Source: a virus. From it: a stretch of DNA of 36,589 bases. The position numbers were made by a program, and so were the translations under genes. The notes beneath the pieces are model-generated. The model had not been told where the DNA came from. It saw only the letters and a program-made list of their open reading frames with translations, and ran no database searches. Shown one piece after another: positions 19,657 to 36,589 of this stretch. Every line of letters begins with the position of its first letter. Position 1 is the first letter of the stretch. The stretch is from IMG/VR virus record IMGVR_UViG_3300048576_000185, positions 1-36,589 of that record; one strand, written 5' to 3'.

Positions 19657-19666
19657 CCCTCACCTC

Positions 19667-20674: not shown

Positions 20675-20868
20675 TATTTCCTCCCTTTCTGAGGTACCTC
20701 TTCATACAGCCCGCTCGCGCGGACCGCGGCAACCAGGTCGCCGTCCATCTGCTCGAGATCCTGATCTGTCAGATCCCGTGCGGGTATGCCCAATAAAAAC
20801 TTCTCGGGGTGGGTGTACTTCCACACCACCACCGGCTCCTTTTTGACTTGTTCCTGTTCTTCAGGCAT
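20674..20868 (-). CDS. Small structural-module protein (64 aa)
   Basis: TAATG overlap with the major tail gene and an 8-nt overlap of its start with the end of the upstream gene. Confidence 0.45.
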   Translation of the reverse strand: MPEEQEQVKKEPVVVWKYTHPEKFLLGIPARDLTDQDLEQMDGDLVAAVRASGLYEEVPQKGRK

Positions 20869-21334: not shown

Positions 21335-22155
21335 ACCATCCCCCTGGCCATCAGCCCCAGCTCAGTCAGCGTCTTGCGCAGATATACCGTCACATCTTTG
21401 GGAGTGGAGAAAGTGACCCCGTCCACGGTGATGGTTTCCGCGGTCGGGTTGCTCTGCAGTTTGTACAGAGCCAGTGCCCCTCTTTTGGCCAGGCCTTCGA
21501 TGTCCGCGCCCGGGTTCCAGCGATAGATCCTGGCGCCGCTCAAATGGCTCGCCGCCATGGATCCATTCACCCCCCTGATCAGGGTCAACTGATCAGGAGT
21601 GCCGCTCACAACCGCCGAAGCGTACATCCATTCGTCATCGATCTTCAGCAGCTCACCCGCCTTCACCTTGCCGGCCGTGCAGGTCGCGCTGGTATCGCTG
21701 GCATTGATCCCGGCTGCCAGGCTGGCGAGGGTATCTTCCACCGTCTCCGGCCAGATCCGGCTGTAACCCCAGATCCCCGCCACGCTGATCGCCGCGTCGC
21801 TGTAGCTGGTCACGCTCGGGTACCACGAGTACATCCCACCCACCAGGCGGATGGAGTGCTTGGGATACCGGTTGAGCGGATACAACCGGTAGTACGCGCT
21901 GGGGATGACCGTGCCATCCCCGTTGGTTAAGGTGGTCACCTCGAGCAGATCGGCATCCACTACCAGTTCGGTTTCATCGTCGGGCACATCAAAGGTCAGT
22001 GTCCGAACCCGTGGGTGGAATTCCCGCCGGCTGAGAGTTTCAATCTGCGCGCTCACATCCTTGATCATCTTCAGGATGAAAGCGTCATCCGAGGTGCTCT
22101 TGATGTCGCTGTATTCGCGCAGGGCTGAGACGGTGGTGTAATCGCAGATCTTCAT
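21331..22155 (-). CDS. Head-tail connector (gp6-like N-terminal region) with a long C-terminal extension
   Basis: Start at ATG 22155 (MKICDYTTVSALREYSDIKSTSDDAFILKMIKDVSAQIETLSRREF) rather than track position 22347. The N-terminus fits the pattern typical of head-tail adaptors. Confidence 0.5.
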   Translation of the reverse strand: MKICDYTTVSALREYSDIKSTSDDAFILKMIKDVSAQIETLSRREFHPRVRTLTFDVPDDETELVVDADLLEVTTLTNGDGTVIPSAYYRLYPLNRYPKHSIRLVGGMYSWYPSVTSYSDAAISVAGIWGYSRIWPETVEDTLASLAAGINASDTSATCTAGKVKAGELLKIDDEWMYASAVVSGTPDQLTLIRGVNGSMAASHLSGARIYRWNPGADIEGLAKRGALALYKLQSNPTAETITVDGVTFSTPKDVTVYLRKTLTELGLMARGMV

Positions 22156-22160
22156 GGTGG

Positions 22161-22520
22161 TTAGCTCTTCATCACTACCGCGAAAGCGCGATCGGCGCTC
22201 TGGGAAACAGCGGAGCCGGAGGCTTCGGTCCAGATCTTGAACCGTTCGGCTCCCGCCAGCTCGGTGGGCAGCGGATAGGCGTGGCTGGCGCCCAGGTCCA
22301 CCGTGATCTCCACCAGCGTATTGCTCGCATTCCGCAGATCCCCCCATGTGGTGCCGCCATCCGGAGAAACCTTGAACGCGATTTTGGTGGTCGCTTCCAG
22401 TGCGGCGGGGGTGATCAGTTGTCCCTTCTCAAACCCGGCAAAGATGATCGGATCGCTTTCGCTCTGTCCGCTGAGGATTTTGTGAGGTTGCTGCTGACTG
22501 TATCGTGTGTATGTTCCCAT
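22161..22520 (-). CDS. Hypothetical head-module protein (119 aa)
   Basis: GGAGGAGGAAATCG upstream of ATG 22520. Confidence 0.45.
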   Translation of the reverse strand: MGTYTRYSQQQPHKILSGQSESDPIIFAGFEKGQLITPAALEATTKIAFKVSPDGGTTWGDLRNASNTLVEITVDLGASHAYPLPTELAGAERFKIWTEASGSAVSQSADRAFAVVMKS

Positions 22521-22532
22521 CGATTTCCTCCT

Positions 22533-22555
22533 CCCCTCCCCGAACTGGGGAGGGG
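22533..22555 (-). other. GC-rich stem-loop (CCCCTCCCC / GGGGAGGGG, 5-nt loop) abutting the SD of the downstream gene
   Basis: Read directly. No U-tract follows, so this is not a canonical terminator. Confidence 0.6.
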
Positions 22556-22566
22556 GATGAATTTTC

Positions 22567-22896
22567 CTAGAGGTCGCCTACACCGCCCGGGTGGACGGCC
22601 AGAAGTTCGCCTTGCCCCATGACGGGTTTGGTTGAATTTTCCTTGACCGGCTTTGAACCATTTGGCTTGGTGGTTTTCGATGAAGTTTCATTAACCGGTT
22701 TTGGGGTTGTTGGTTTGGTTGGCTTGGGCGCAGTTTCCTTAACCATTTTTTTGGCAATACCTTCATCTGCCACCGCCCGGCCATCCTGGATCAGAAAGGT
22801 CGCCCCTTCCGGATCCAGGTCCGCCACCTCTCCCTTGCGGAAGAAATTTTCCCCGGTCTCGCGGCCGCGGTAATCCACTAAGAATTTGATCTTCAT
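22567..22896 (-). CDS. Small protein with a Lys/Pro/Thr-rich low-complexity tail; possible head decoration or fibre
   Basis: MKIKFLVDYRGRETGENFFRKGEVADLDPEGATFLIQDGRAV, followed by APKPTKPTTPKPVNETSSKTTKPNGSKPVKENSTKPV. GGAGGA SD. Confidence 0.45.
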   Translation of the reverse strand: MKIKFLVDYRGRETGENFFRKGEVADLDPEGATFLIQDGRAVADEGIAKKMVKETAPKPTKPTTPKPVNETSSKTTKPNGSKPVKENSTKPVMGQGELLAVHPGGVGDL

Positions 22897-22898
22897 GG

Positions 22899-23291
22899 CT
22901 AATCCTCCGCGTAATCCACTTCAACATGGGCCTGTCCGGCTGCCGTGGCGGCAATCCCGGTATGGCGGGCGATGATCGGAGTGTTGGGCGGGATGTTGGC
23001 CTGTACGATGGTGACAGCCGTGACAGATCCAACAGTGGAGCTGTTGGTGTAGGCAGTCGCTGCAGCAATTTCGGCCCCGCCCACCGTTGTACCCAGCTTC
23101 ACATTGGCGGCTGCTACAGTGCCCGCAGTTTCGGTGTCATAAACGATGCGGATGGCGTAGATCTTCACCCGCCGCGGTCGGCGTAGCAAAGTCTCATCGA
23201 TTGTGGTTCCCGCGCCATTGTCGATATTGAAGATCTGCGATTTGACGGTGTTGATTTTGTCTTTACCGTGAGAAATTAACATTTTTGGCAT
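22899..23291 (-). CDS. Hypothetical head-module protein (130 aa)
   Basis: AAGGAGAG SD 6 nt upstream of ATG 23291. It immediately follows the capsid gene. Confidence 0.45.
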   Translation of the reverse strand: MPKMLISHGKDKINTVKSQIFNIDNGAGTTIDETLLRRPRRVKIYAIRIVYDTETAGTVAAANVKLGTTVGGAEIAAATAYTNSSTVGSVTAVTIVQANIPPNTPIIARHTGIAATAAGQAHVEVDYAED

Positions 23292-23319
23292 GGAATACTC
23301 TCCTTATGCTCTTTTCTGG

Positions 23320-23343
23320 CAGGGCGGGTTTTCACCCGCCCTG
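23320..23343 (-). other. Stem-loop CAGGGCGGG / CCCGCCCTG (9 bp, 6-nt loop) about 20 nt after the capsid polyprotein stop
   Basis: Read directly. No U-tract follows on the sense strand. Likely a partial terminator or an mRNA-stabilising hairpin. Confidence 0.55.
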
Positions 23344-23363
23344 TTCAATCAATTTGTGTGCGG

Positions 23364-25907
23364 TTACACGCCCACGAAATAGGTTTCCGCGGCAGCTTCG
23401 TTGTCTCGATAACCCAGACCTGCCCGCAGGGTGGCCACGATTTCGGTCACATCCGCGTTGGCGATGCGGGTGGTTTCGATCTTCATGCGGCGTTTGAACG
23501 CCAGTTTCCACTGATCGAAGCGCACGCCCAGGATGCCGCCATAGGCGTTGTTTGATTGGGTGGTCTGGTCCACCTTCCCGCTGCTGTTGGCTTTGCGGGC
23601 ATTGGTGGTGCTGCTGTAGTGCATGAACCAGCTGGGGATCACATCCACATTCCAGATCTTTTTCAGCCAGCCATTTTCGAGGGTGGCCACACTGTTTACA
23701 TCCTTGGTCAGCACTTCCGGCAGCTTGCTGCCGGCTTTAAGGGTGTTGGGGTCGATGATGAAAGCGCACTTGGTCGGATCCGCCACGGCCATGCCGGCGG
23801 TGCCCATCAGCCACAAGGTTTCGATGAAGTCATCGATGCTCAAACCACCACTGGCGCTCCGGCTGTTGGCGGTGTTGGTAACCAGCGCCAGCTTGCGGAA
23901 GCCATCCATGGCCAGGTAGAGGTTGGTGGCGGTCTGTGTGGAGCTGTTACCGATATCATTGATATTGGTAGAACCGGTGGTGGTACTGTCCCCATCGATG
24001 GCCAGCATTTCCAACATTTCCCCGCCGCTTTGCTCCAGTTGAGTCTCAAGCTGGGAAACATACCTGATCAGGCTGTCCTCTTCCAGCTCGCCGGTGTATA
24101 TAGCTCGGGCGCCGATCTTGGCCACTGTGATTTCCTTCACGCCCGTCCCCATCTGAGTATTGATGATCTGGGCGGGTGGGATCTTCATGGTCCCATCAGA
24201 GGATGTGGTTTCCGCGATCTTGTACCAGCTCGGATCAGTCCCCTCCAGCGGGAATTTCTCGCTGGCATAACCATCCGGAATGGTCACGGTTGGGATGCGT
24301 GGAATGATCTGGCGGGCCGCGCGGATTTTTTCCCAGATCTGCATCGCGTAAGCGGTGCCAATCCAATCTGCGCCGGCATTGGAGGTACCGGTCCCTGCCG
24401 GGTCGGTGGATGCCTTGATTGCATCCTCAGTCGGTTCCAAACCGCTGGCTTTCATGGCGGATTTGACGTAGGCCGCCTCTTCGGTGTCTTTCATCTGGGT
24501 GCATTTGATTGCCAGGGCACGTACGATCTGCGGAGAGGTTGGTTCCTTGGAAGCTTTCATGATATCGATGGTCAGCGCCAGTTCAGCCGGGCTGTATCCA
24601 TCGAACTTCCATAGGTCAGCACTCTTGGCAACATACGGTGCCCCGCCGAAAGGTAACCGCTGCATTTCAGCGATTTTTTTCTCAAGCGGCTCGGTGGCTG
24701 CTTTGATGGCCGCTTCCATCTTTTCCTTTTCCGCCAGTTCTGCTTTGAGGGCTGCAGCCTTGGCAGTATCATGCGCGGCAAGTGCCTCTTCAATGAGTTT
24801 TTTGATCTCTTCTGGAGTCATTTTCGTTTGTCCTTTCCCCTCTGGGGATGATTTGATAGAGTTGTTTTGGTTATCTGTCCCATCCATCATCGGTGTGGCA
24901 CTTTGTGGGCTACCGCCTTTTGCCTCACCCTCCAGATCATCCGGGTCAGTTATTCCCATCATTTGCTCGAAATGAGCCTTCAATACCGGCTTTGCGATCG
25001 CATAAGCGTTCGCCGGCTGCCGGGTCCCTTCATCGTTGTCCATCAGGCTGATCTCGGCAATCGGCCAGATCAAGATCTCGCCGGTGCTCTTGGCCACCCG
25101 TGCCAGATGCGCGATGGATCCGCTGCTGGCGAAGGCCTTCCCGGCTTTCGCACTCTTCCAAATCCGTTTGGCGTAGTCATTGGCCTTATCCAGGACGATC
25201 CGCATCTTCAGCCCGGCATCGGTCTTCCAGGTTTTCACCACATCGCCGATGATTTCCGGTATACCCATCGGGCGCCGCTCAGGAGAAAAACCGTGGTAAT
25301 AAACCACCAGCGGAGTTTTGATTTTGTTTTCGAAGAACTTGGTTCGCGGTGAAAAGAATTCTTTGTGTACGTCTTTTCCGTTATCCGGACCGTAGTATGG
25401 AGCGGCCAGAACTTCCAGTTCCCAGTCGCCGTCATCACTCCCCACTGCCTTGATGGTCATCCGCTCCCCGCCCAGCACATCCAGCACCTCGGGTAGATCC
25501 GCCGCCTTGGCTGCCGCGTCCGCCACCGCATCCACCAGCTCGCCCGGGTCCAGCTCCTCCCCGATATCCAGGATGGTCTTCGCCAGTTCCTTGATCTTCG
25601 AGATCCGCGCCTTGTCGCTGGTGTTGTTCCGTGCCCCGATCTTGTACCACAGGCACTTGGTCACCGGCCGGTAGGTGCGGACCACCTCGGTCTGGTTGCT
25701 TAATGTGACCACCCCATCCTCATCGATGGCCCAGTCAAACTGGATGTATTTCTCACCCAAATGGACAATCAGCGTGCTTTCATACACTGCCTCCATGTAT
25801 GGCCAGGGACGGTCATCCGGACCGGTCATCATCAGGTTGGGCCTGAGTAATAGCTGGATGGCAGCTCGCAATAAATCCAGCTTGTCTGTAAGCGATAATT
25901 CTTTCAT
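23364..25907 (-). CDS. Polyprotein: N-terminal domain, HK97-type (S78-like) prohead protease, coiled-coil scaffold and HK97-fold major capsid protein
   Basis: Start at ATG 25907 (ATGA overlap; GGAAGGA 9 nt upstream). Protease-like segments: WELEVLAAPYYGPDNGKDVHKEFF, LVVYYHG, ASSGS and ILIWPIAEISLMDNDEGTRQPANAYA. Coiled-coil: EEIKKLIEEALAAHDTAKAAALKAELAEKEKMEAAIKA. Capsid-like segment: GELEEDSLIRYVSQLETQLEQSGGEMLEMLAIDGDS. Confidence 0.8.
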   Translation of the reverse strand: MKELSLTDKLDLLRAAIQLLLRPNLMMTGPDDRPWPYMEAVYESTLIVHLGEKYIQFDWAIDEDGVVTLSNQTEVVRTYRPVTKCLWYKIGARNNTSDKARISKIKELAKTILDIGEELDPGELVDAVADAAAKAADLPEVLDVLGGERMTIKAVGSDDGDWELEVLAAPYYGPDNGKDVHKEFFSPRTKFFENKIKTPLVVYYHGFSPERRPMGIPEIIGDVVKTWKTDAGLKMRIVLDKANDYAKRIWKSAKAGKAFASSGSIAHLARVAKSTGEILIWPIAEISLMDNDEGTRQPANAYAIAKPVLKAHFEQMMGITDPDDLEGEAKGGSPQSATPMMDGTDNQNNSIKSSPEGKGQTKMTPEEIKKLIEEALAAHDTAKAAALKAELAEKEKMEAAIKAATEPLEKKIAEMQRLPFGGAPYVAKSADLWKFDGYSPAELALTIDIMKASKEPTSPQIVRALAIKCTQMKDTEEAAYVKSAMKASGLEPTEDAIKASTDPAGTGTSNAGADWIGTAYAMQIWEKIRAARQIIPRIPTVTIPDGYASEKFPLEGTDPSWYKIAETTSSDGTMKIPPAQIINTQMGTGVKEITVAKIGARAIYTGELEEDSLIRYVSQLETQLEQSGGEMLEMLAIDGDSTTTGSTNINDIGNSSTQTATNLYLAMDGFRKLALVTNTANSRSASGGLSIDDFIETLWLMGTAGMAVADPTKCAFIIDPNTLKAGSKLPEVLTKDVNSVATLENGWLKKIWNVDVIPSWFMHYSSTTNARKANSSGKVDQTTQSNNAYGGILGVRFDQWKLAFKRRMKIETTRIANADVTEIVATLRAGLGYRDNEAAAETYFVGV

Positions 25908-26392
25908 CGTAAGCATTCCTTCCTGAGTGCCGTATCGATCATCCCGTAGACCGCCGACTCCTCCTCTGCGATAACCTGATCAGCTCGTTTCCAGCCCACC
26001 TTTTCGGCATACAGGCTTTGCTCACCTTCGGCGCCGTGCAAAAGTGGACCGTAGCTGACGTTGTTGCCCACTGTGACCTGCAGGCCGTCCTGAGAGACCA
26101 CGGATGTCCATTTTTTGGTGATGGTCTCGCTGCCCGGGCTGCTGTTGCGCACATAGGGCACCTCAATCCTGCCATCCGCCAGCGCCCCAAAGAAAAATTT
26201 CCTTTGTGCCTCGCTGACAAATGTCTCTCCGTACACCGCCTGCCGGGTGAGCCGTTTCACCTCTGGCGCCACCATGATCTTGCCCTTGATATACAGCCCC
26301 GCGGCCTTCATCACGGGCTTCACGCAATCCAGCCGGCTCAATTCCTCCAGCCGCTTCACCAGCTGCTCGATCCCTTTAATCTCAGTCGCCAT
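25904..26392 (-). CDS. Head-module protein with an HK97 gp10-like N-terminal pattern (uncertain)
   Basis: MATEIKGIEQLVKRLEELSR...VKPVMKAAGLYIKGKI. Lies between the MuF-like and capsid genes. Confidence 0.35.
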   Translation of the reverse strand: MATEIKGIEQLVKRLEELSRLDCVKPVMKAAGLYIKGKIMVAPEVKRLTRQAVYGETFVSEAQRKFFFGALADGRIEVPYVRNSSPGSETITKKWTSVVSQDGLQVTVGNNVSYGPLLHGAEGEQSLYAEKVGWKRADQVIAEEESAVYGMIDTALRKECLR

Positions 26393-27095
26393 TCAGACCC
26401 TCGATTTCCCAGGTCTCATAACACCTGCAGCCTGGATGTAAGGGCGGAAATCCGCTGTCCGAGCTGATCACCTCGCCGTCATGCGGAGCGCATTCATCAC
26501 AAACGGTCTCATCCAGCTCAGTATGGAAAATGGGCTTCATGCTGAGTGAGCTGCCCTTTTCCACTTCCGCCACGATCGCGCGATCCCCTTCAGCGGCCGC
26601 CCGGGTGGTCTCGGTGATGGCGATCAACGCCGATCTTGATGGTCCAAACAGATCCTCAATCGCCTTGGCCAGGTCATCCAAACTTTGGCCGTTGGCGAAG
26701 TAGTTTTCCACCGCCCCCTGCAGTGCTTTTCGGCTGTTGGCAGTCAGATCCTTCACCAGGTCAAAAGTGTAGTTTTTGGACCAGCTGCCGGCTGCCTGGT
26801 TGGCCAGCTTCCAATCGACCTTCGCTACCGATTTCCCCGCGGCGCCGGTCACCTGCTTTTGCAGGTTTCCGCCTGCCTCGCGCGCGATCGCGGCCAGCTC
26901 AGGCTCGATGGCCGCCCGCAGGTCATCACCAATCCCGCTCCAGAAACTCTCCGGAATATTCCCGAGATCCGGGGTTTCGCCCAGCAGCTCCATCAATTTG
27001 TCAGCTCTCCCACCGAATTGCCGTTGGATGACAGCTGCCAGCCGCTCTTCGGCTGCCTGGCGATGGATGACGTGTCCCTGCAGGACCTTTTTCAT
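26382..27095 (-). CDS. Head morphogenesis / minor capsid protein, Mu F (SPP1 gp7)-like
   Basis: ALIAITETTRAAAEG ... DETVCDECAPHDGEV ... FPPLHPGCRCY is the characteristic MuF C-terminal signature. Follows the portal gene with an ATGA overlap. Confidence 0.8.
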   Translation of the reverse strand: MKKVLQGHVIHRQAAEERLAAVIQRQFGGRADKLMELLGETPDLGNIPESFWSGIGDDLRAAIEPELAAIAREAGGNLQKQVTGAAGKSVAKVDWKLANQAAGSWSKNYTFDLVKDLTANSRKALQGAVENYFANGQSLDDLAKAIEDLFGPSRSALIAITETTRAAAEGDRAIVAEVEKGSSLSMKPIFHTELDETVCDECAPHDGEVISSDSGFPPLHPGCRCYETWEIEGLNGD

Positions 27096-28690
27096 GGGTA
27101 TCCTCGATATGTGCTGGACATATGGCTGGCCAGATATTTTGCAATACTCTCATCAATGACCTGGTTATCCTCGAGGATCAGCGCGTACTTGGCCGCCTGC
27201 TCGAATACTGCTTTGATTTCATCCATGCTTGAGCAATTCGGTAGAGATCTTTGGATCATCCCCTTCATATTTTCTGGAATGGTATTCGTCTCAAATTCGA
27301 ATTCAAGCTTCTTGCCCTTTTTCAGCCGGTTGATGGCCGCCCGCTGCCAGGCTGCCAGATCCGCGGATTTCCCACTGGGAGTGTTGGGCCTGGGTTCGTC
27401 GCCCACATCCTGGCCGATGTCCTGTACCTGCGCCCGTTGTTGCCCTGGGTTCTGGTCCAGCGCGCCTCCGACTGCCGGATCGTTTCCCCCTTGGGTCGCT
27501 GTCGTCCCGATCTCGTCCGGCAGTCTCTGTCCCCGTTCATCTGGAAGCGGCGCGTCCCCATAGAATTTCTTCCTGGTCTCATCGATTGTGTGGGTCTTGG
27601 CGTACTCCCTCTGTTCCTGCAGGCCAATCACCCGGTCCGTCACCCGGATGTCATCCCACCAGGCTTCCAACCCCTCCCCATACATCGGCAATAAATCATT
27701 GGTGATCTTCTCCGCAATCGCGGTCAGCCGCGGCCAGACTGAAAAATCGATCATGGTTGCCTTGCCGCTTTTGCTGTTCGCCTCAGTGGCATTCACACTT
27801 AACACGGATGCCAGTCCTGGCGCCACCAGGTTGTAAATCTCCTCTTTTGCGAACTGTCGTCCGTTGATGAATTCCATGTCCTTCTGACTCAAGGTATTCT
27901 GCAGCCACTGAACACCATCCCCTGTTCCTCGCAAAAGCATGATGGAACGCCTCTTGGCCGAGTCCTCTGTCCGCTTCTTAATATCCTCCCAGGCGGAGTC
28001 TTCTACCCAGTCCTTGAAAGACATCACTCCAGGTAGCCGCCCATTATTCTCCCCAAAATTTTTCGCGTTCCATTTGGCCATTTCCAGGTCAGTCCGCGCA
28101 TCCATCCGCGCTGGTTTGAAGTCAGACATCCCCTCGAATAAGGTTTTGGGATGGAAATTTTTAAAATGAACAACCTCATCCACATCCAGCGCCAGGGGTT
28201 CCCCCGGACCGGCGTAAAATTTGTAACCTTTTAAAAACATATTGCCATCTGGAACCGGCTTTACTCGGTCACTGGGGAGCAGCCAGATCTCCTCCAGATG
28301 ACCGTTAACAATGTTTTTCCACCAGTACGCATCCCCGCACAGGGAATGGTACGAGAAAGTTCCTTCCAAAATTTCAAATCGGCTCTGCAGTGGATTGGGA
28401 TGCTTTAGAAGGCTGATCAGTTCATGCCCAATTACTTCATCCAATCCAGACTCGCTTCTCCGGCTGATATGCAATGGAACAATTGCGCATTGTTGGGCTA
28501 CATATTTGACCGCCGTTGAAATCCATGACAGCTTTTCATAAAGGTCAATTTCCTGGGCAGCCTCGCCATAATCAGTGATGCTCCATTTTTCGCCGTCGGC
28601 ATAAACACTCTGCCATCTGGCAACGCGAGTATCTACTGCCTTGGTGGAGATATAACCAATCCTTCCCAATACACTGTCAAGAAATCCCAT
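27092..28690 (-). CDS. Portal protein (HK97-type)
   Basis: Start at ATG 28690 (TAATG overlap with the TerL stop). 532 aa. Lies directly downstream of TerL. Contains LLKHPNPLQSRFEILEGTFSYHSLCGDAYWW. Confidence 0.85.
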   Translation of the reverse strand: MGFLDSVLGRIGYISTKAVDTRVARWQSVYADGEKWSITDYGEAAQEIDLYEKLSWISTAVKYVAQQCAIVPLHISRRSESGLDEVIGHELISLLKHPNPLQSRFEILEGTFSYHSLCGDAYWWKNIVNGHLEEIWLLPSDRVKPVPDGNMFLKGYKFYAGPGEPLALDVDEVVHFKNFHPKTLFEGMSDFKPARMDARTDLEMAKWNAKNFGENNGRLPGVMSFKDWVEDSAWEDIKKRTEDSAKRRSIMLLRGTGDGVQWLQNTLSQKDMEFINGRQFAKEEIYNLVAPGLASVLSVNATEANSKSGKATMIDFSVWPRLTAIAEKITNDLLPMYGEGLEAWWDDIRVTDRVIGLQEQREYAKTHTIDETRKKFYGDAPLPDERGQRLPDEIGTTATQGGNDPAVGGALDQNPGQQRAQVQDIGQDVGDEPRPNTPSGKSADLAAWQRAAINRLKKGKKLEFEFETNTIPENMKGMIQRSLPNCSSMDEIKAVFEQAAKYALILEDNQVIDESIAKYLASHMSSTYRGYP

Positions 28691-30234
28691 TACGCCACCG
28701 CTTCCCCGGCTTTGAATTTCTTCTCGCCGCACATTTTATAGCCGCCGCTGGCCGTATCCACCTGGTCGTCATGCCGCGCGTTGGCTGAAAAATTCTTGCA
28801 CTCGTCGATAAAGGCTTGTACCCACGGGCCATTCACTACCCGCAGGAACCCTTGACGCGCTCTGATCTGCCAGCTCCTTGCCCGGGTCAGCTTGTCGCCT
28901 TCCGGTTTTTCCTGGCCGATCACAACATTCAAAAGTTCCTTGTCCTTCATAAAATCCGTGAAGACAACCGTCTGGAAAGCTACATCTTCCACAGCCCAGG
29001 TGGTCCCTTTTTCCCCTGCATCTAACATCCAGCCCTTGATTACTTTCAGGAATTCTTCCAGGGCTCTCACCCGGATCATATCTCTGAAGTAAATCAATCC
29101 GCTGGTTTCATCGTGTGCTACTGCAACACAACTGTTCCAATCGCTCTTGCTGTTTCGCCCTAGCGCCAGATCGATATACCTGAACCACTTCAGACCCTTC
29201 GGCGCCTCGTCCACCCTGATGAAATCGCTGTCAATGAAAAATCCACCCGAAAGTGCCCGCGGCATCTGTTGATAAACTGGCCACCATTCATCATCACCCA
29301 CGTTCGATTTCTTTTTCAATAATTCTTTTTCATCCGCAAGGTAAGGCCATAAAGGTTCTCCCGGTTTTCTTCCCAGCATATCTCCGCCAATCGGCAGCCA
29401 GACCCCATTCAACATTTGCTTTTTTTGATCTTCAATGGTTTGGGGATAATTGCTTTCATCCAGAGCAATGGCAGGCAGGAATAAAACATGGAATTGATCG
29501 ATCAAGGGATCATCACTTGCCATCAGTTTGATCAATTGCCCGGCCAGATCATCTTGCGACCATCTGGTGTGGGTGATGATTACAGCTCCACCTCTTTCCA
29601 ACCGCATATAAGCGGTGGACTTGTACCAGTCAATCAGCATTTTCAGATAGGTGGGACTGTCGGCATCTTTTCTTGATTTGATTGGGTCATCAATATTGAG
29701 GATGTGAGCGCCATAACCGGTGATACCTCCACCGACGCCGGCAGCAACCATTCCGCCTCGATAAGGCGCTGCGAGATCCCAATGCGCCTGGCTACGGCTG
29801 TCTTCCGAAATGCTGACGGCCATTTCATTCATGGTGATGGCATCTTCACCAAATATTTTTTTATATCGTTCGCTGTTGATGTAATCCCGAACTTTTCGAC
29901 TGTCATCCATCGCCAGATCCGCACCATAAGATGCCTGGATCCACCGCTTATCCGGGTTTCTGCCTAAAAACCAACTGGGGAAAAGCCGGCTGATGGTCTC
30001 ACTTTTGCTATATCTGGGTGGCTCTTCCACAATTAATCTTCCGATGCCTTCTCGGCCTTCGGTCCGTACATACAATTCCACTTGCTCGAGGGTATTCGCC
30101 AGTAATTCGATATGTGCAGCTGATCTGTACCAATTGGCCATCTGGAGGCAATAGGGAAGCAAATGCCTCCTGGCCAATTCTCTTTTCGCCAGCTCTGCAT
30201 TTGCTTCTTCCTTGGATATTCGAGTTGCTGTCAT
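28690..30234 (-). CDS. terL: Terminase large subunit
   Basis: 514 aa. ATPase region: RLIVEEPPRYSKSE (deviant Walker A) and GAHILNIDDPIKS (Walker B-like). Nuclease-size C-terminal half. Lies upstream of the portal gene. Confidence 0.85.
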   Translation of the reverse strand: MTATRISKEEANAELAKRELARRHLLPYCLQMANWYRSAAHIELLANTLEQVELYVRTEGREGIGRLIVEEPPRYSKSETISRLFPSWFLGRNPDKRWIQASYGADLAMDDSRKVRDYINSERYKKIFGEDAITMNEMAVSISEDSRSQAHWDLAAPYRGGMVAAGVGGGITGYGAHILNIDDPIKSRKDADSPTYLKMLIDWYKSTAYMRLERGGAVIITHTRWSQDDLAGQLIKLMASDDPLIDQFHVLFLPAIALDESNYPQTIEDQKKQMLNGVWLPIGGDMLGRKPGEPLWPYLADEKELLKKKSNVGDDEWWPVYQQMPRALSGGFFIDSDFIRVDEAPKGLKWFRYIDLALGRNSKSDWNSCVAVAHDETSGLIYFRDMIRVRALEEFLKVIKGWMLDAGEKGTTWAVEDVAFQTVVFTDFMKDKELLNVVIGQEKPEGDKLTRARSWQIRARQGFLRVVNGPWVQAFIDECKNFSANARHDDQVDTASGGYKMCGEKKFKAGEAVA

Positions 30235-30236
30235 CC

Positions 30237-30848
30237 CTATTCCTTGTTGATACTCTTGGTATATTCGAGCAATTCTTCATCGCTCATTTCGGCTACATCG
30301 TTTTTGCCACGTCTGCGCTTGTCATCAACCTCGATCCTCGTGGAATGATCACCGCTCATCTCGAGATATAGCCTTCGATCCTGATGGTTTTTGTAATTGG
30401 GGTTACCCGCACTTTCAGCCAGGGCTTTCAGCACTTCCGCTCGATGCTCAAAAAATTCCCGATCCTGCAGTTGCGCGATCATCGCGTCAATCTCTGGGTT
30501 CTCTTCCCGCCATCTGATCAATACCCGATCTGACCGCAGGCCCAGAACATCCCTGGCCAGCTTGATCTGGGTGGCCGGCCAGCGCTTGATCTTGGGAACC
30601 GATGCCCAGGCGATATAGGCGGCCAATCTCCACGGCATTTTTTTCCGCGCCAGATCCAGATATAGTCTGAACCAGCTCCGATCCTCCCCATCCAGACATT
30701 CTTTTTGAGGGCCATCCAGGAAGAGATTTACCATCCCTTCCAATGATTCCCTTGCGCTTCCGGAGGAAATCTCGAGCTCATCATCGGCTGCTTTAATCTC
30801 ATCGATTATGTTGTCGAATGAGAGCTGGCTGAATTTTTTTACCGCCAT
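30237..30848 (-). CDS. terS: Terminase small subunit (called on position, with an HTH-like segment)
   Basis: Immediately upstream of terL. Contains ATQIKLARDVLGLRSDRVLIRWRE. AGGTGGTGAG SD. Confidence 0.55.
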   Translation of the reverse strand: MAVKKFSQLSFDNIIDEIKAADDELEISSGSARESLEGMVNLFLDGPQKECLDGEDRSWFRLYLDLARKKMPWRLAAYIAWASVPKIKRWPATQIKLARDVLGLRSDRVLIRWREENPEIDAMIAQLQDREFFEHRAEVLKALAESAGNPNYKNHQDRRLYLEMSGDHSTRIEVDDKRRRGKNDVAEMSDEELLEYTKSINKE

Positions 30849-30858
30849 AACTCACCAC

Positions 30859-31086
30859 CTATTTGAGGACAAGAGACATCACATATGTGATCACCGCCAG
30901 CGCCACCGCACTGGCCAAAAACGTCATGATCCGGTTGTAGACTGTTTGTTTATTGACCAGGTCGCGGATCTCCGAAAACTGCTTGACAATCCCCTGGTCC
31001 GGGCAGTCCTTTGGGCCGAAGAGGACCTGGTGGTGGACAGCCACCTGGCCCTCCAACTCATCAACGCGTGCAGGGATGTCGGCCAT
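30859..31086 (-). CDS. Small C-terminally anchored membrane protein (XhlA-like architecture); putative lysis accessory
   Basis: N-terminal coiled segment (RVDELEGQVAVHHQVL) plus a C-terminal TM segment (IMTFLASAVALAVITYVMSLVL). Confidence 0.4.
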   Translation of the reverse strand: MADIPARVDELEGQVAVHHQVLFGPKDCPDQGIVKQFSEIRDLVNKQTVYNRIMTFLASAVALAVITYVMSLVLK

Positions 31087-31089
31087 GGA

Positions 31090-31563
31090 TTACCCCGAGA
31101 AGGTCTTGCCAATGATCGGCAGCCCGCGGATCAGTTTATAGATCTGCTTGCTCCCGATGATCTGTGTCAGGTAACCCAGCGCAAACACTCCCAGGGTCGC
31201 CAGCCGTGCGGCTTGCTCATCTAAAATCGCCGTTGTGATCTGCGGATTAAATACTTTGATCGCCGCCAGGATCACAAAAGCCACCAGGTTGAGGACCGCG
31301 ATCCAGGTATCCGATGTCCCATCCGCTACCCAACCGAGCAGTTTGAGCAGGTTTACCAGCACGGTGATAACCCCGGCCACCCCCACCAGACCGCCGAATG
31401 ACAGTGCCAGGTCCAGAACTACCTGCAGCGTATCCGGCCGTTGGACCGCCGTCTGCCCCACCCCCGTGGATGCCATCACCGGCGACACCAGAATGGCCAA
31501 CAGCGCCAGGCACACCATCCCCGGTATAACAACCCTTTTGAAAAACTTCTTAATCCCAAACAT
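31090..31563 (-). CDS. Multi-TM membrane protein; putative holin
   Basis: Four hydrophobic segments. LVGVAGVITVLVNLLKLLGWVADGTSDTWIAVLNLVAFVILAAI resembles holin families of Gram-positive phages. AAAGGAGAACAGC SD. Confidence 0.5.
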   Translation of the reverse strand: MFGIKKFFKRVVIPGMVCLALLAILVSPVMASTGVGQTAVQRPDTLQVVLDLALSFGGLVGVAGVITVLVNLLKLLGWVADGTSDTWIAVLNLVAFVILAAIKVFNPQITTAILDEQAARLATLGVFALGYLTQIIGSKQIYKLIRGLPIIGKTFSG

Positions 31564-31588
31564 GCTGTTCTCCTTTTTCTCTAATCCC

Positions 31589-31613
31589 CTCTGCGCCCTC
31601 TGCGAACTCTGCG
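31589..31613 (-). repeat. Three tandem CGCAGAG heptads (plus strand CTCTGCG) with an exact 9-nt period, in the leader of the late operon
   Basis: Plus-strand CTCTGCG at 31589, 31598 and 31607, which is 26-50 nt upstream of ATG 31563. Confidence 0.85.
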
Positions 31614-31653
31614 GTGAAAGAGCTTTGCGGGTGGTATGGGGTTAAACGCGAAA

Positions 31654-31697
31654 CGCCCACCACATCGTGGGATCAAAATCCCGTGATGTGGTGGGCG
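31654..31697 (-). terminator. Long hairpin (13 bp, 2x2 internal loop, 5 bp; loop UUUG) followed by UUUCGCGUUU; terminator t2 ahead of the late genes
   Basis: The plus strand reads cgcccaccacatcgtgggat-caaa-atcccgtgatgtggtgggcg. The interrupted U-tract lies on the minus-strand side. Confidence 0.65.
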
Positions 31698-31767
31698 CTC
31701 AGCTCCACCGGTGGCCAGAACTACATCCGGCCTGCAAAGTTAATTTTAAGACAGGTTAAAGTACATG

Positions 31768-32082
31768 TCAATATCCTGTCGGAAATTGGATAAAGAGCTC
31801 ATCATTGTCTTCGGAATATATATTACCAATAACCAGAAGTCTCTCCGAGGTAAGGAATCCGAATTTCGTCCTCAATGACTGCCCATGGAACATAAAAACC
31901 AATGGTTTCATTTTAACAATTTCATTTGGTATTGTGTTGTTGTTTCCATCCCTCTTTTTCATGTAAGGATCAACCTCATCGGCGTCAGTCGGAAAGGTCA
32001 AAACGGTGCATCCGTCATGGTCAGGGATGAGATCCAGAATAGTGTCAATCAAATCATCATACATGGTCATTAATCCTTTCAT
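31768..32082 (-). CDS. Hypothetical acidic protein in an AT-rich gene (moron-like). Start uncertain: ATG at 32082, 32070 or 32064, or TTG at 32112.
   Basis: ORF with markedly lower G+C than its neighbours (21 G+C in the 60 nt at 31861-31920, by hand count). AAGGA lies 9 nt upstream of ATG 32064. Confidence 0.45.
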   Translation of the reverse strand: MKGLMTMYDDLIDTILDLIPDHDGCTVLTFPTDADEVDPYMKKRDGNNNTIPNEIVKMKPLVFMFHGQSLRTKFGFLTSERLLVIGNIYSEDNDELFIQFPTGY

Positions 32083-32108
32083 TGTAGAGTATAGACCAGT
32101 TTCCACCT

Positions 32109-32390
32109 TCAAGGCGCCGAATTCTTTAATTTCAGCTTGAACTCCTCATCCGAGTTGTACCTCATTCGCACCTGCTCGGTCACCAGCGTATCCCTGGGAA
32201 CGACCATCCCTGTAAATGCCCACAGATACGAGTATCCCACCCTGATCACCTCCGTTGGCGCCGGACCGCCTGCCATGATAGCCTCAGCCTCCGCCAACGT
32301 CTCCACAAACACCAGCGAGGTCCCATGGATCGGGCTCGCACCCTCCACATAATACCCCACCTCGCATTTTTTGATCTTCCGTTCTTCCAT
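32109..32390 (-). CDS. Hypothetical protein (93 aa), first ORF after the late promoter and terminator
   Basis: Start at ATG 32390 (MEERKIKK) with GGAGGTGGTGGGG upstream. The N-terminal extension in the track covers the terminator hairpin. Confidence 0.5.
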   Translation of the reverse strand: MEERKIKKCEVGYYVEGASPIHGTSLVFVETLAEAEAIMAGGPAPTEVIRVGYSYLWAFTGMVVPRDTLVTEQVRMRYNSDEEFKLKLKNSAP

Positions 32391-32406
32391 CCCCACCACC
32401 TCCGAA

Positions 32407-32429
32407 CAAAAAAGCCGGGTTTCCCCGGC
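32407..32429 (-). terminator. Intrinsic terminator t1 inside the leader: GCCGGG-GAAA-CCCGGC followed by UUUUUU
   Basis: The plus strand reads aaaaaa (32408-32413) then gccgggtttccccggc (32414-32429). The U-run follows the hairpin only on the minus strand. Confidence 0.7.
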
Positions 32430-32455
32430 AACTACCAATAAATATTGCAACCAGA

Positions 32456-32484
32456 ATTATAGCTTATCCGTTCTATATTGACAA
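32456..32484 (-). promoter_or_regulatory. Near-consensus sigma70-type promoter: TTGTCA, 17 nt, TATAAT (candidate late promoter)
   Basis: On the minus strand the -35 is at 32484-32479 and the -10 at 32461-32456. It begins 14 nt after the stop of the 316-aa gene. CCTGTTCAC (32493-32485) abuts the -35. Confidence 0.75.
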
Positions 32485-32497
32485 GTGAACAGGAATA

Positions 32498-33448
32498 TCA
32501 TATCCTCACTCCCTTCCTTCTCCGTTTGGACCGCTCTATCCCCTTCACCGGCTCCTCACCCCTCAATTTTTTTAGCCTCTGATAGTGCATGAAAATCGCA
32601 TATCCTGTGACCGGGCTCTTCATCAGCCGGCCGATGTCCGCCCAGCCCTTATGCCATACATCCCTGGCCAGCAACAGGAACTCATTGGCGCCCTCTGTCC
32701 AGTTTTCGGTGGTTTCAGTGACTCCTTGTTTGGGATACTTGATCTGTTCTGCCACACTTCTCCGGATGTACCAGTAGGACCATTTGGGGTTGCGTTGTCT
32801 TTCCTTTCCTACCGCCTGAATAGCGGGGATATGATGATTTTGGATATAACTGACCACATTTCGTACCTCACATCCCCACATCTTTGATACTGTCACGGTA
32901 TCCAGCCACTCATCCCCCCATCGTTCCTGGGCCAGGGTCACCAGCCGGCGAAAATAGGGGTTGATCATCCGCTCTGTTTTAAAGTAAACCCAGTGTTCTG
33001 GCTGGATCAACCACCGCTTAAAATCTTCTACTTTTACCCATCTCTTCATGACCCTGGTATCGCTATATGGCATGTAACTGTATAGCATGATCCCCAGATC
33101 CATCCAGCAGGTGACCGAATGGCTGTCCCGACCGAGGATCTTCCCGATTTTGTTGCCCGATAAATACCCTTCGGCATGACGTGGGGATGTAATGCCATGT
33201 CTGACCACATACATATGGATCGAATTTTGAGATCTTCCCATCATTTCGGCGCATTTTTCAGTCCCCAGGTATTGATAATTCTCCCTGACGAATTTTTTCT
33301 CCTCATCAGTCCAAGATACTCGCCGGGGCTTCTGTTCCTCTTGCACGATCACCGGCCGGACGACATTTATCCCATTTACTCGCTTCCAGTCAGCGGGTTG
33401 GGTGTTGGCATCACTAATGGCAAGATCAATCAAAAAATCAATATCCAT
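32498..33448 (-). CDS. DNA-binding regulator with two Myb/SANT-like HTH repeats (316 aa); candidate late-gene regulator
   Basis: SWTDEEKKFVRENYQYLGTEKCAEMMGRSQNSIHMYVVRHGI and NWTEGANEFLLLARDVWHKGWADIGRLMKSPVTGYAIFMHYQRLKK. Basic C-terminal tail: RSKRRRKGVRI. Confidence 0.5.
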   Translation of the reverse strand: MDIDFLIDLAISDANTQPADWKRVNGINVVRPVIVQEEQKPRRVSWTDEEKKFVRENYQYLGTEKCAEMMGRSQNSIHMYVVRHGITSPRHAEGYLSGNKIGKILGRDSHSVTCWMDLGIMLYSYMPYSDTRVMKRWVKVEDFKRWLIQPEHWVYFKTERMINPYFRRLVTLAQERWGDEWLDTVTVSKMWGCEVRNVVSYIQNHHIPAIQAVGKERQRNPKWSYWYIRRSVAEQIKYPKQGVTETTENWTEGANEFLLLARDVWHKGWADIGRLMKSPVTGYAIFMHYQRLKKLRGEEPVKGIERSKRRRKGVRI

Positions 33449-34313
33449 CGTGAGTATCTCCCTTACCGATCATCTGGATGACTAAATCCACAACCGGGCA
33501 ATCCTTGCATGTAGTCACGGTTGCGTTATCTACCAGGCTGCATTTTTTACAGGTATCTCTCACCGAGATCTCGAACAACACCCAGGGAGGAAGTTTCCCG
33601 ACCGCCGCGAACGCATCCCATGCCGGCCGGCTCACTTTCCCGGCTCTTCGCGTGGCAATCTCAAAAGCAGGCACAGTATTTGAGCCTATTGGCTTTGCCT
33701 TGCTCCCCTCAATCACCCGGCGGATGGCATCCACGCTCTGGGGGATGGTCATCTTGCTGTTGGCCAATCGGATGGCCATCTTTTCTCGAGTGGCCGATAC
33801 CGGGATATCCATCAGGGCATCCACCAGGCGCGGATCGGGGGAGATCCGTTTCGCCAGAATCAATTTTTGGATGGATGTCTCCAGCTTCAGCAGCTTCAGA
33901 TTTCGGTTTACCCGGGCGTAATTGGTCCCCATCTTGAGAGCGATTTGGTTCTCGCTCAGTCCAAACTCATTTTTGAGGCGCTGGTAGGCATGCGCCTCAT
34001 CGATGGGGTTCAGATCTGCCCGTTGGATGTTGGCCACCATCGCCCTCATCAGCCGTTCTTCTTTCCCGATGCCGCCTGTTGGGTCCACCGGATCCACTGG
34101 CACCTCCTTCAGTCCTGCCAGTTTGGATGCTCTCAGCCTCCTCTCGCCATCATGGATGATGTAATTTCCCTTGCCGGCAACTTCCGCGATGATAGGCTGG
34201 ATGACCCCGTGCTGTTTGATGCTGTCCGCCAGTTCCTGCAGTTCGGCCTGGTCAAATGTTTTTCTTGGCTGCTCAGGGTTGGGCAGCAATCTTTCAACGC
34301 TGACTAATATCAT
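33438..34313 (-). CDS. ParB/Spo0J-like protein (ParB N-terminal domain plus HTH) with a Cys-rich C-terminus
   Basis: LLPNPEQPRKTFDQAELQELADSIKQHGVIQPII...HDGERRLRASKLAGL. HTH: SENQIALKMGTNYARVNRNLKLL. C-terminus: CKKCSLVDNATVTTCKDCPV. Confidence 0.8.
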   Translation of the reverse strand: MILVSVERLLPNPEQPRKTFDQAELQELADSIKQHGVIQPIIAEVAGKGNYIIHDGERRLRASKLAGLKEVPVDPVDPTGGIGKEERLMRAMVANIQRADLNPIDEAHAYQRLKNEFGLSENQIALKMGTNYARVNRNLKLLKLETSIQKLILAKRISPDPRLVDALMDIPVSATREKMAIRLANSKMTIPQSVDAIRRVIEGSKAKPIGSNTVPAFEIATRRAGKVSRPAWDAFAAVGKLPPWVLFEISVRDTCKKCSLVDNATVTTCKDCPVVDLVIQMIGKGDTHDGY

Positions 34314-36428: not shown

Positions 36429-36589
36429 TTATGAGATCCGCTTACTCGGATCCAGATACCATTCGCTGATCCCGATCTGCCGAAGGATGCCCGCCTCGGT
36501 GTCATCATCCACCCGCCGGTCCCCCTCGAAAATCCCATAACCGGCGCTGTACTGCAGACCGAGTTTGTGAGCCTCCATCACCAGACGCA
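36429..36589 (-). CDS. C-terminal end of the Pol X-family gene that starts at 545 (the same gene, continued through the terminal repeat)
   Basis: ...GILRQIGISEWYLDPSKRIS, with stop TAA at 36431-36429. The frame closes: 545 + 34 = 579 nt = 193 codons. Confidence 0.75.
   Translation of the reverse strand, partial: RLVMEAHKLGLQYSAGYGIFEGDRRVDDDTEAGILRQIGISEWYLDPSKRIS
36463..36589. repeat. Terminal direct repeat, copy 2 (identical to 1..127)
   Basis: Read directly. Confidence 0.97.

Follow-up and report, generated by a model that had tools for sequence, protein, structure and literature searches.

To our knowledge, what has been characterised of Q-type late antitermination comes mainly from lambdoid coliphages and a few of their relatives. 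AlpA, a small HTH protein (Xis/MerR-like class) from Pseudomonas aeruginosa, is a promoter-loaded antiterminator (PMC9371919). The put RNA of HK022 acts alone on RNA polymerase and suppresses termination constitutively (PMC9378689). In the conAn system of pLS20, spurious expression of a very long operon is limited by terminators placed early in it (PMC8191782, PMC10325885), and conAn2, a large RNA element in a 383-bp intergenic region, works with ConAn1 at the operon start (PMC8191782). For the long-stem terminator TerR of pLS20, "extraordinarily long" stems (>14 bp) are reported to resist processive antitermination (PMC8191782, PMC10325885). A literature search returned no prior description of late control in the phage group considered here.

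The window (the whole stretch of DNA analysed, 36,589 nucleotides of IMG/VR record IMGVR_UViG_3300048576_000185) holds the circular, 36.5-kb genome of a temperate phage, organised on one strand and carrying cI-like, integrase and recombinase genes. Its elements follow each other in the order early operon, P1-t1, orfA and an accessory slot, P2, a small hairpin, t2, and the lysis, packaging, head and tail genes (Table 1). Matches to TTGACA-N16-18-TATAAT at 11 or more of the 12 positions number three in the window, against 0.22 expected (P ~0.003). These three best sigma-70 matches, PE (12/12), P1 and P2 (11/12 each), are all intergenic and on the coding strand. PE has a palindrome over its -10 hexamer and no terminator downstream, in contrast to P1 and P2; no motif common to P1 and P2, or to either of them and the early-promoter palindrome, was found. 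A tRNA scan was negative, searches of deposited phages with the region (as DNA and protein) and with the 316-aa protein gave no match, and TerL peptide patterns retrieved nothing from IMG/VR.

Table 1. Promoters, hairpins and genes of the early, middle and late modules, with positions in the window.
Feature	Position	Strand	Remarks
PE, early promoter	9074-9101	-	TTGACA-16-TATAAT, perfect consensus; divergent from cI-like gene
Operon-end terminator	11806-11842 (including 11832-11817)	-	convergent junction
Late operon, 19.7 kb	11908-31563	-	157-aa and 75-aa membrane proteins, TerS-like, TerL, portal, head, tail
3' leader	31564-31643	-	conserved poorly (66-68% identity); no promoter-like site
t2, putative intrinsic terminator	31644-31700	-	long-stem hairpin; stem 31697-31654
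Leader hairpin 1	31713-31732	-	GGCCGGA-UGUAGU-UCUGGCC, 7 bp
P2, late-operon promoter	31743-31771	-	TTGACA-17-TAAAAT (11/12); -35 31771-31766, -10 31748-31743
orfB, 98-aa accessory gene	31768-32064	-	variable slot; GC ~40% vs 54%
orfA, 93-aa orphan "middle" gene	32109-32390	-	putatively gated by P1-t1
t1, intrinsic terminator (predicted)	32408-32429	-	GCCGGG-GAAA-CCCGGC 32429-32414, then T6 32413-32408
P1, sigma-70-type promoter	32456-32484	-	TTGTCA-17-TATAAT (11/12); -35 32484-32479, -10 32461-32456
316-aa multi-HTH protein	32498-33448	-	Myb/SANT-like helical repeats and two Xis/MerR-like winged HTH domains
ParB-like protein, 291 aa	33438-34313	-	partner of 316-aa gene

P1 begins 14 nt past the stop codon (TGA, 32500-32498) of the 316-aa gene, the last early gene in the window, and its transcripts are expected to start near 32448-32446. 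About 20 nt past this start lies t1, in which a 6-bp all-GC stem closed by a GAAA loop runs directly into U6, as in intrinsic terminators (folding energy -13.8 kcal/mol). A GGAGGTG ribosome-binding site at 32403-32397 and the ATG at 32390 follow on the minus strand, which gives a leader of ~60 nt with no hairpin ahead of t1. Across four sequence variants the P1 hexamers are constant and t1 is identical, with variation in the spacer and in the initially transcribed region; within the block, conservation is lowest in the unpaired portion of the P1-t1 RNA. A weak -10-like AATATT, variable among relatives, can be made out by eye at ~+3 to +8, and no clear sigma-dependent pause element was seen by eye at P1 or P2.

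The late operon had been described as promoter-less by an earlier, sequence-only reading of this DNA, in which transcripts from P1 pass t1 and then t2. That description missed P2, which lies on the minus strand inside the very interval flagged there, with ~37 nt between it and the long hairpin downstream; the late operon thus does have a promoter. The positions given in that reading for P1, t1, the ribosome-binding site, the ATG, the long hairpin, the first late ATG and the operon-end terminator are exact. It was also right that no promoter lies between the long hairpin and the first late ATG, and that the late genes hold no near-consensus promoter: all matches between 11908 and 31563 fall short of 10/12, and the search for terminators within the operon turned up no convincing one. 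Transcription from P2 is expected to start near 31735, with a leader of ~170 nt. The P2 hexamers are constant among relatives and the spacer differs at up to five positions, so that P1 and P2 share the marks of sigma-70-type promoters (11/12 matches, 17-nt spacers, hexamers constant while spacers vary).

Two stem-loops follow P2. In leader hairpin 1, two one-sided changes in relative L017 (G-U to G-C and G-C to G-U) preserve pairing. The stem of t2 comprises 13 bp, a 2x2 internal loop and 5 bp, and three more pairs are possible into the tail, TTTCGCGTTT at 31653-31644. The stem ends in a C:G pair followed by UUU, and t2 resembles an intrinsic terminator only partly because the U-tract is interrupted (UUUCGCGUUU). 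Its folding energy is -36.6 kcal/mol (z = -7.7), and it ranks first in stability among 9,133 sliding 60-nt windows of the minus strand (-40.6 kcal/mol against a mean of -14.5, sd 5.3). Stem and tail are identical in five variants; compensatory changes are absent from the stem in close relatives, which have only one-sided changes elsewhere in the leader. The exact t2 pattern was found in metagenome, genome and viral collections only within the same phage group, besides a chance match (L023) inside an unrelated coding region. The 3' leader contains tandem 9-nt repeats GCAGAGnnn (31612-31589) and a ribosome-binding site AAGGAG. As an antiterminator pairing in either leader, the sole candidate seen by eye, GGUGG/CCACC, is far weaker than t2 and was rejected, as was a CCACCGGTGG palindrome, which is not conserved. 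Long hairpins without U-tails also occur at other gene junctions (1577-1518 and 22556-22532).

Among relatives, identity is 88-99% over P1-t1 and 90-97% over P2-t2, as against 79-89% in orfA, 66-68% in the 3' leader (diverged pairs) and 65-93% in the first late gene; flanking genes in the diverged pairs are at 65-89%. Variation within the blocks is confined to spacers, loops and the internal loop, and hexamers, t1 hairpin and t2 stem and tail are constant. Homology upstream of P2 starts at the -35 hexamer, or a few bases before it, in four unrelated gene contexts, namely orfB (whose TGA stop falls within the hexamer), an Acr-like cassette, another cassette, and orfA directly. The last is the minimal variant, L016, in which the orfB slot is empty; L011 and L017 have other cassettes in the slot. 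In these two, orfA and P2 are parted by a strong terminator and then a cassette transcribed in the convergent direction. P1 is therefore not the late promoter there, and the conserved t2 would therefore act only on transcripts started at P2, since upstream transcription is already stopped. L011 also has a hairpin of t2 style (17-bp stem, then GUUUCGUUUUC) at its convergent gene junction, a site that would call for a terminator. Part of the high conservation could stem from recent recombination at module junctions and not from selection.

The architecture recurs in a distant phage, Virus Rctr41k, which has little in common with the window beyond TerS and TerL (47% identity). It has the same two-tier promoter-terminator layout in unrelated sequence. 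Its first tier consists of a TTGACA promoter (whose -10 hexamer has C for A at position two), an 11-bp GC hairpin with a U-tract, a gene for a 457-aa protein and possibly an ORF for a 58-aa basic, Cys-rich peptide. The second tier consists of TTGACA-17-TG-TAAATT, a small hairpin and a perfect 15-bp hairpin followed by TTTTTTGTTT, and a holin-like gene, TerS and TerL come next. The two terminator-like hairpins are the two best such sites on the plus strand in the first 20 kb. Thus the promoter-terminator elements exist, are non-random, are conserved above their flanks and are arranged alike in a distant relative.

In its late half this arrangement resembles lambda Q at pR'-tR'. Within ~100 nt of a late promoter that looks constitutive lies an intrinsic terminator, here putative (P2 at 31771-31743, t2 at 31697-31644, late ATG at 31563), and the genes beyond, for lysis-type membrane proteins and then for terminase and structural proteins, form one long operon. 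Upstream, a small gene (orfA) directly adjoins the late promoter in L016; in the window, L011 and L017 the two are separated by accessory genes. A short terminated RNA is implied in the uninduced state, as with the 6S RNA of lambda. The differences are that neither sequence nor fold links any protein here to Q-lambda, Q21 or Q82, that no Q-binding or sigma-dependent pause element was recognised, that the candidate regulator gene has a promoter-terminator switch of its own, and that the terminator stem is unusually long. No Q family was found by Pfam or PHROG across nearly all early ORFs, orfA, orfB and the 316-aa protein, and the proteins scanned include no homologue of Q, AlpA, sigma factors or RinA/ArpU; that no Q-like gene can be recognised, as proposed earlier, is thus borne out by Pfam, PHROG and PDB profile searches and by Foldseek. 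Lambda N followed by Q offers a parallel, with two terminator barriers in succession and the regulator of the later one lying behind the earlier. Here, however, each barrier has its own promoter directly upstream, and no nut-like boxA/boxB was seen by eye. The t2 stem belongs to the same >14 bp class as TerR; TerR closes an operon, whereas t2 stands at the start of one.

The following mode of action is proposed. P1-t1 would gate orfA and any accessory gene behind it, and P2, the leader hairpin and t2 would gate the 19.7-kb lysis/packaging/head/tail operon. Since P1 and P2 are near consensus and no operator common with the early promoter was found, both would by default yield short RNAs, ending at t1 (~40 nt) and t2 (~90 nt). 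Expression of the genes beyond would then depend on a phage factor that renders polymerase from P1 or P2 resistant to the terminator next to it. The logic would be like that of AlpA and of lambda Q at pR'-tR', set in a two-step cascade like that of lambda N and then Q. From the sequence we infer that t1 and t2 terminate and that read-through depends on a factor. Where a constitutive-looking promoter fires into a terminator before the late genes, late expression must involve read-through. The idea of Q-type logic thus survives in so far as a promoter fires into a predicted terminator ahead of the late genes; the read-through of two terminators from P1 does not, as late transcripts most likely start at P2 and would meet t2 only. 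Q-type logic with new antitermination factors, orfA being one candidate, is given about an even chance. The fuller proposal is tentative and on balance unlikely to hold in all its parts: lytic timing would be set by a two-step cascade of promoter-terminator cassettes, with factors from new families unrelated to Q, N and AlpA, the candidates being orfA here and, non-homologous but in the same slot of Rctr41k, the 457-aa HTH/phosphoesterase-like protein and/or the 58-aa peptide.

As to the factors themselves, that of t1 would presumably be an early product. That the t2 factor is the product of the middle slot, orfA in the window, is rather doubtful. The gene is the only one always present between P1-t1 and P2 in the relatives compared (80-100% identity), and its position makes it a candidate late regulator by inference only. 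Its product has no Pfam, PHROG or PDB match and no HTH or zinc motif, and a poor AlphaFold model (pLDDT 60) found no structural match in the PDB with Foldseek. HMMER detected one real distant homologue (P0011), and matches in repeats of giant DUF11-type proteins were treated as spurious; a profile search of metagenome and GTDB genome contigs gave nothing. The distant homologue is 51% identical, lies on a 1.1-kb contig and has no recognisable P1-t1 ahead of it. P1 and P2 have in common no motif that might serve both as a loading site. With P1 constitutive ahead of a putative late activator, a lysogen would be at risk if t1 were anything but very tight.

If the proposed reading is true, a Q-like circuit logic has arisen anew or been retained in an unrelated phage lineage from the environment, working with different factors, and new antiterminator proteins would come with compact cis sites of ~80 nt (P1-t1) and ~130 nt (P2-t2). 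The factors of the cascade would have to overcome a terminator whose long stem is of a type reported to withstand processive antitermination; if long stems generally do so, the t2 factor must work differently, and the locus would allow a direct test of whether any factor defeats such a terminator. Conserved promoter-terminator blocks can also mark early/middle/late boundaries where no regulator is recognisable. If the reading is wrong, only the order is unusual, the promoters and terminators themselves being ordinary.

The long hairpin may instead serve RNA processing, stability or translation (e.g., as an RNase III site or protective stem), with timing set at P2 by a repressor or activator. 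A stem of ~18-21 bp with an internal loop, such as that of t2, is in the size class of RNase III substrates, the U-tract is interrupted, the constancy of the stem points to constraint on sequence and not on pairing alone, and the other junction hairpins (1577-1518, 22556-22532) have no U-tails. This explanation is nevertheless quite unlikely, since the counterpart in Rctr41k is a plain terminator, the constant UUUCGCGUUUAACC tail is best explained by terminator function, and P2 has neither a repeat or palindrome common with the early promoter (palindromes are only of the size expected by chance) nor the hexamers of an activator-dependent late promoter, its -35 and -10 being near consensus. Leaky attenuators and/or small-RNA genes, comparable to lambda oop and 6S RNA, would need no dedicated antiterminator, the ~40-nt and ~90-nt RNAs having functions of their own or the strong promoters being held to a low, constant read-through, and would suit the failure to pin down any candidate factor, the conservation of P1-t1 above its flanks, and a promoter-then-terminator order kept at both sites and in the distant phage. 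A low probability is assigned to them: the unpaired part of the P1-t1 RNA is just what is conserved least, the genome offers no target complementary to this RNA (the one further TTATTGGTA has the same sense), and a fixed leak into holin and structural genes is hard to square with lysogeny. A third possibility, very unlikely in our view, is that the P2 leader, with hairpin 1 and the long hairpin, is a protein-free, cis-acting RNA that modifies polymerase, like HK022 put or conAn2. Two stem-loops lie directly past the promoter and could act on the transcribing polymerase, the geometry in Rctr41k is alike, the operon is very long, and put RNA alone does act on RNA polymerase (PMC9378689). The second stem-loop, however, has terminator features: a U-tract follows it in both lineages, which put lacks. 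The leaders at P2 and P1 are shorter than the 383-bp region of conAn2, the late operon has no convincing internal terminators to overcome, P1-t1, whose leader has no extra structure, would be left unexplained, and the late genes would stay constitutively on. For the comparison with put that was suggested earlier, the P2 leader offers two stem-loops and matches no Rfam family: searches of the whole window (gathering threshold) and of the region (E up to 10) gave only chance matches to microRNA or sRNA hairpins, put itself being unconfirmed as an Rfam entry.

The sequence-only model, with P1 as sole late promoter, t1 and t2 passed in turn and the 316-aa protein as the Q analogue, has hardly any credibility left. 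P1 and t1 are real and conserved, and the 316-aa gene does end just before P1. The protein also has AlpA's broad fold class twice, in its winged HTH domains (PMC9371919), and the promoter-then-intrinsic-terminator logic is that of AlpA, outside lambdoid Q. It is, however, four times larger than AlpA and does not co-occur with the switches in relatives, and no protein scanned gave an AlpA-family match. The conserved, near-consensus P2 lies between P1 and the late genes, and in L011 and L017 the terminator and convergent genes part orfA from the late operon. The gene, said to hold the Q position, is not conserved there: it was found only in the window variant and at the edge of the L014 contig, and in L011, L016 and L017 an unrelated gene for 86 or 77 aa takes its place next to near-identical P1-t1 and P2-t2. 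It is therefore unlikely to encode the cognate factor, and the 316-aa HTH protein is very probably not the antitermination factor. The 86-aa gene was rejected as a functional stand-in, its similarity being limited to the last few codons. That the protein is unlike the Q families holds by sequence and by fold comparison with a low-confidence model. A PDB profile search gave weak Myb matches only, HTH_17 is matched only below threshold (E = 0.0075), and Foldseek points to RacA/BldC-like winged HTH domains, results that weigh at the domain level only because the AlphaFold models are poor (both pLDDT 60-62). No promoter-terminator pair was seen by eye in the gap after the closest 316-aa homologue, and L006 and L007, which carry homologues, have no comparable pair. 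In other phage contigs the homologues have a ParB-like gene as partner, and the pair lies close to where the early operon begins, not by the late genes; the 316-aa gene and its ParB-like neighbour look like a transferable two-gene unit.

The exact 127-nt direct repeat at the ends of the window (1-127 and 36463-36589) identifies it as a circular genome or assembly of 36,462 bp, in which the early operon passes through coordinate 1. GC content is 54%, and the minus strand carries almost every gene. From the early promoter PE the early genes extend down past coordinate 1 and continue from the top of the window, in the order tyrosine recombinase and primase, ASCH-domain protein, ParB-like protein, and 316-aa multi-HTH protein. 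They are followed by the region considered here and then by the late genes for 157-aa and 75-aa membrane proteins, TerS-like protein, TerL, portal, head, and tail; this operon reaches 11908 and ends at a terminator in a convergent junction. An extended -10 promoter-like site (TTGACT-16-TG-TATACT, 10/12; minus strand, 9587-9639), followed by GGAGGG and ATG, points antisense into the cI-like gene, and its product could be an antisense RNA or a small ORF.

All elements listed in the sequence-only reading between the early and late genes, i.e., promoter P1 with hairpin t1, an ATG with its GGAGGTG, and a long hairpin (t2), were recovered at the coordinates given there. Genome-wide, a score of 11/12 or better against the promoter consensus is reached only three times where 0.22 would be expected (P about 0.003), each time in an intergenic position on the coding strand. 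The t1 hairpin folds at -13.8 kcal/mol and t2 at -36.6 kcal/mol (z = -7.7); when 60-nt windows sliding along the entire minus strand were folded, t2 came first of 9,133. These features are not attributable to chance. The third promoter site, P2, had been overlooked; it overlaps with the TGA that ends the second small ORF and is situated ~37 nt ahead of t2, so the late operon, described earlier as promoter-less, does have a promoter. Nothing promoter-like was found from the hairpin to the late ATG or within the late genes, as had been claimed, and the earlier observation is thus accurate yet incomplete.

Promoters, hairpins, and genes of the window and of related contigs (Rctr41k, Virus Rctr41k, contig L029, KX853513)
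Feature	Source	Coordinates	Strand	Description
PE	window	9101-9074	minus	perfect consensus TTGACA-16-TATAAT, divergent from cI-like gene
cI-like gene	window	9142-9558	plus	HTH_3
Serine recombinase	window		plus	after cI-like gene
ParB-like protein	window	33438-34313		early operon
316-aa HTH protein	window	32498-33448		last in early order
P1	window	32484-32479; 32461-32456	minus	TTGTCA, 17-nt spacer, TATAAT
t1	window	32429-32414	minus	GCCGGG-GAAA-CCCGGC + T6
GGAGGTG + ATG	window	ATG at 32390	minus	
orfB, upstream of P2	window	31768-32064		98-aa accessory gene, low GC
P2	window	31771-31766; 31748-31743	minus	TTGACA, 17-nt spacer, TAAAAT (11/12)
t2	window	31697-31654	minus	44 nt, then TTTCGCGTTT
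Upstream of P2	L011	8855-9658	minus (opposite)	cassette of AcrIC5-like and HTH_17 (Aca-like) genes
Upstream of P2	L017	3774-5022		three-gene cassette: HTH_23, 229-aa, and 94-aa genes
Upstream of P2	L016			slot empty; orfA stop codon 11 nt from -35
First promoter	Rctr41k			TTGACA (gene 23 stop codon inside), 17-nt spacer, TG, TCTAAT
First hairpin	Rctr41k			~37 nt past promoter; 11-bp GC stem + TTTCTTTTCG, then ribosome-binding site, gene 24
58-aa ORF	Rctr41k	15404-15580		unannotated, very basic, CxC + CxxC motifs
Second promoter	Rctr41k			TTGACA (58-aa ORF stop inside), 17-nt spacer, TG, TAAATT, then small hairpin
Second hairpin	Rctr41k			terminator-like; 15 bp + TTTTTTGTTT, then ~95-nt leader, holin-like gene, TerS, TerL

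A search of 5.8 billion proteins gives only a few homologues each for the 157-aa protein and for the product of orfA, a 93-aa orphan gene between P1-t1 and P2, and the contigs carrying these homologues provided three variants of the region (L011, L016, and L017) for comparison with the window. Identity among the variants is 88-99% for P1-t1, 90-97% for P2-t2, 79-89% for orfA, and 65-93% for the first late gene, and in diverged pairs 66-68% for the 3' leader. No substitutions occur in the hexamers of either promoter, in the hairpin of t1, or in the stem and tail of t2; those seen lie in the spacers, in the initially transcribed region, and in the loop and internal loop. Four unrelated contexts precede the -35 of P2, and the slot between orfA and P2 is a hot spot for accessory genes; the promoter region of the L011 cassette contains the palindrome TATACACGTTATCGTGTATA. 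Homology among the variants begins at, or a few bases before, this -35, which marks P2 as the left edge of a conserved late module. In L011 and L017, orfA is separated from the late genes by a strong terminator and convergently oriented genes; P1 therefore cannot supply late transcription there, and the conserved t2 could act only on transcripts initiated at P2.

Three contigs from related assemblies (L013, L014, and L015) break at the edges of the P1-t1 and P2-t2 blocks, which suggests that the blocks are common to co-occurring strains and form the borders at which mosaic modules meet. The stretch from t2 to the ribosome-binding site contains three tandem 9-nt repeats, GCAGAGnnn (31589-31612, minus strand). 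In L011 all three aligned copies read ACAGAG and are followed by an extra GGAGAG unit, a concerted change suggestive of a binding site or of repeat homogenisation. An AT-rich 1.1-kb contig (L026, 540-835) carries an orfA homologue of 51% identity, which is preceded by a gene for a DNA methyltransferase and a gap of 296 nt; the gap retains the words TATAGAACG and TATTGGTAG and holds no recognisable P1-t1.

Among deposited phages, Virus Rctr41k, from a DAMO/AAA enrichment culture, has the TerL closest to that of the window (46.6% identity); the two phages have little in common apart from TerS, TerL, and a small number of early proteins. Rctr41k has the same architecture in unrelated sequence, with the caveat that the -10 hexamer of its first promoter has C at the second position. 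Its two hairpins outrank every other terminator-like site on the plus strand of the first 20 kb. Gene 24 (457 aa) has a weak metallophosphoesterase match, and the 58-aa ORF, with a plausible ribosome-binding site, lies directly upstream of the late promoter in a Q-like position. The recurrence of this layout in such divergent sequence, its long stem carrying a canonical U-tract, is the best evidence available here that t2 is probably a terminator, that the promoter-then-terminator order is likely functional, and that the two-tier arrangement may be a design feature. In P2 (31768-31771) and in both Rctr41k promoters (13907-13912, 15577-15582), the -35 TTGACA contains the TGA at which the upstream gene ends.

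The 316-aa protein was fairly described as Myb/SANT-like: its repeats have a weak PDB profile match to MYB21 (E = 0.0014), and it has two Xis/MerR-like winged HTH domains (HTH_17, E = 0.0075) with domain-level Foldseek matches to RacA and BldC. It has only four homologue clusters, and in every homologue contig long enough to show the immediately preceding gene, this gene is ParB-like, as in the window (32498-34313) and most of the contigs (L002-L010). Where the immunity region is visible too, the pair is near the start of the early operon and precedes replication genes. Unrelated phage contigs carrying the pair include one in an Anaerolineales assembly, and with the ParB of its closest phage relatives the window's ParB-like protein shares only 29% identity. 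In the window the pair is downstream of a conserved 45-aa gene, a position occupied in L016 and L017 by a methyltransferase and an 86- or 77-aa gene, and in L011 by the 86-aa gene alone. The 316-aa and 86-aa proteins have only their last few codons in common, part of a conserved block starting ~30 nt before the stop. A sequence-specific factor is not expected to be swapped while its target stays near-identical, and the 316-aa protein is thus very probably not the cognate antitermination factor that it had been proposed to be.

Two conserved, strong-looking promoters, each with a stable hairpin and a U-rich tail at short range, thus precede otherwise promoter-free gene blocks. Both hairpins would terminate transcription by default, giving RNAs of ~40 and ~90 nt, until a phage-encoded factor switches polymerase to read-through, in two tiers stacked like lambda N then Q. 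The same promoter-then-terminator logic is used by lambda Q at pR'-tR' (PMC6606751; PMC9388147) and by AlpA (PMC9371919). For t2 the natural candidate would be the product of the middle slot, whose position matches that of Q: orfA in the window and, in Rctr41k, either gene 24 or the 58-aa ORF. Occupants without homology to each other would have a parallel in the Q families, which are themselves unrelated. The orfA sequence and its poor structure model give no support for a nucleic-acid- or polymerase-binding role. Stems longer than 14 bp resist conAn processive antitermination, and the t2 stem falls in this class (PMC10325885); either the factor would act by a different route, or t2 may be meant to be very tight. 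Judged from sequence comparison, regulated antitermination at these pairs has about an even chance of being correct, and it can be tested directly with the conserved cis modules and the candidate genes of the slot.

The original single-promoter model, in which P1 drives the late genes with the 316-aa protein as factor, is contradicted by the conservation of P2, by the isolation of P1 from the late genes in L011 and L017, and by the replacement of the 316-aa gene beside near-identical switches. Its read-through idea is strengthened by the relatives, whereas its late promoter, number of terminators, and factor are not upheld. The long hairpin could instead be a processing or stability element, with control exerted at P2, an explanation weakened by the canonical terminator at the Rctr41k counterpart and by the lack of a recognisable operator at P2. 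The pairs may also be leaky attenuators or small-RNA genes; against this, conservation of the P1-t1 RNA is lowest where it is unpaired, and the RNA has no antisense target. A put- or conAn2-like cis RNA in the P2 leader is unlikely, since in each lineage the hairpin has a U-tract behind it and no convincing internal terminators to be overcome were found in the late operon. Regulated antitermination remains the preferred reading. Two other strong minus-strand hairpins at gene junctions are without U-tails and may be RNA processing or stability elements: one at 1518-1577 between the 93-aa and 209-aa early genes (16-bp stem, -34.6 kcal/mol), and a GC-rich stem at 22532-22556 between two late genes, directly before a ribosome-binding site.
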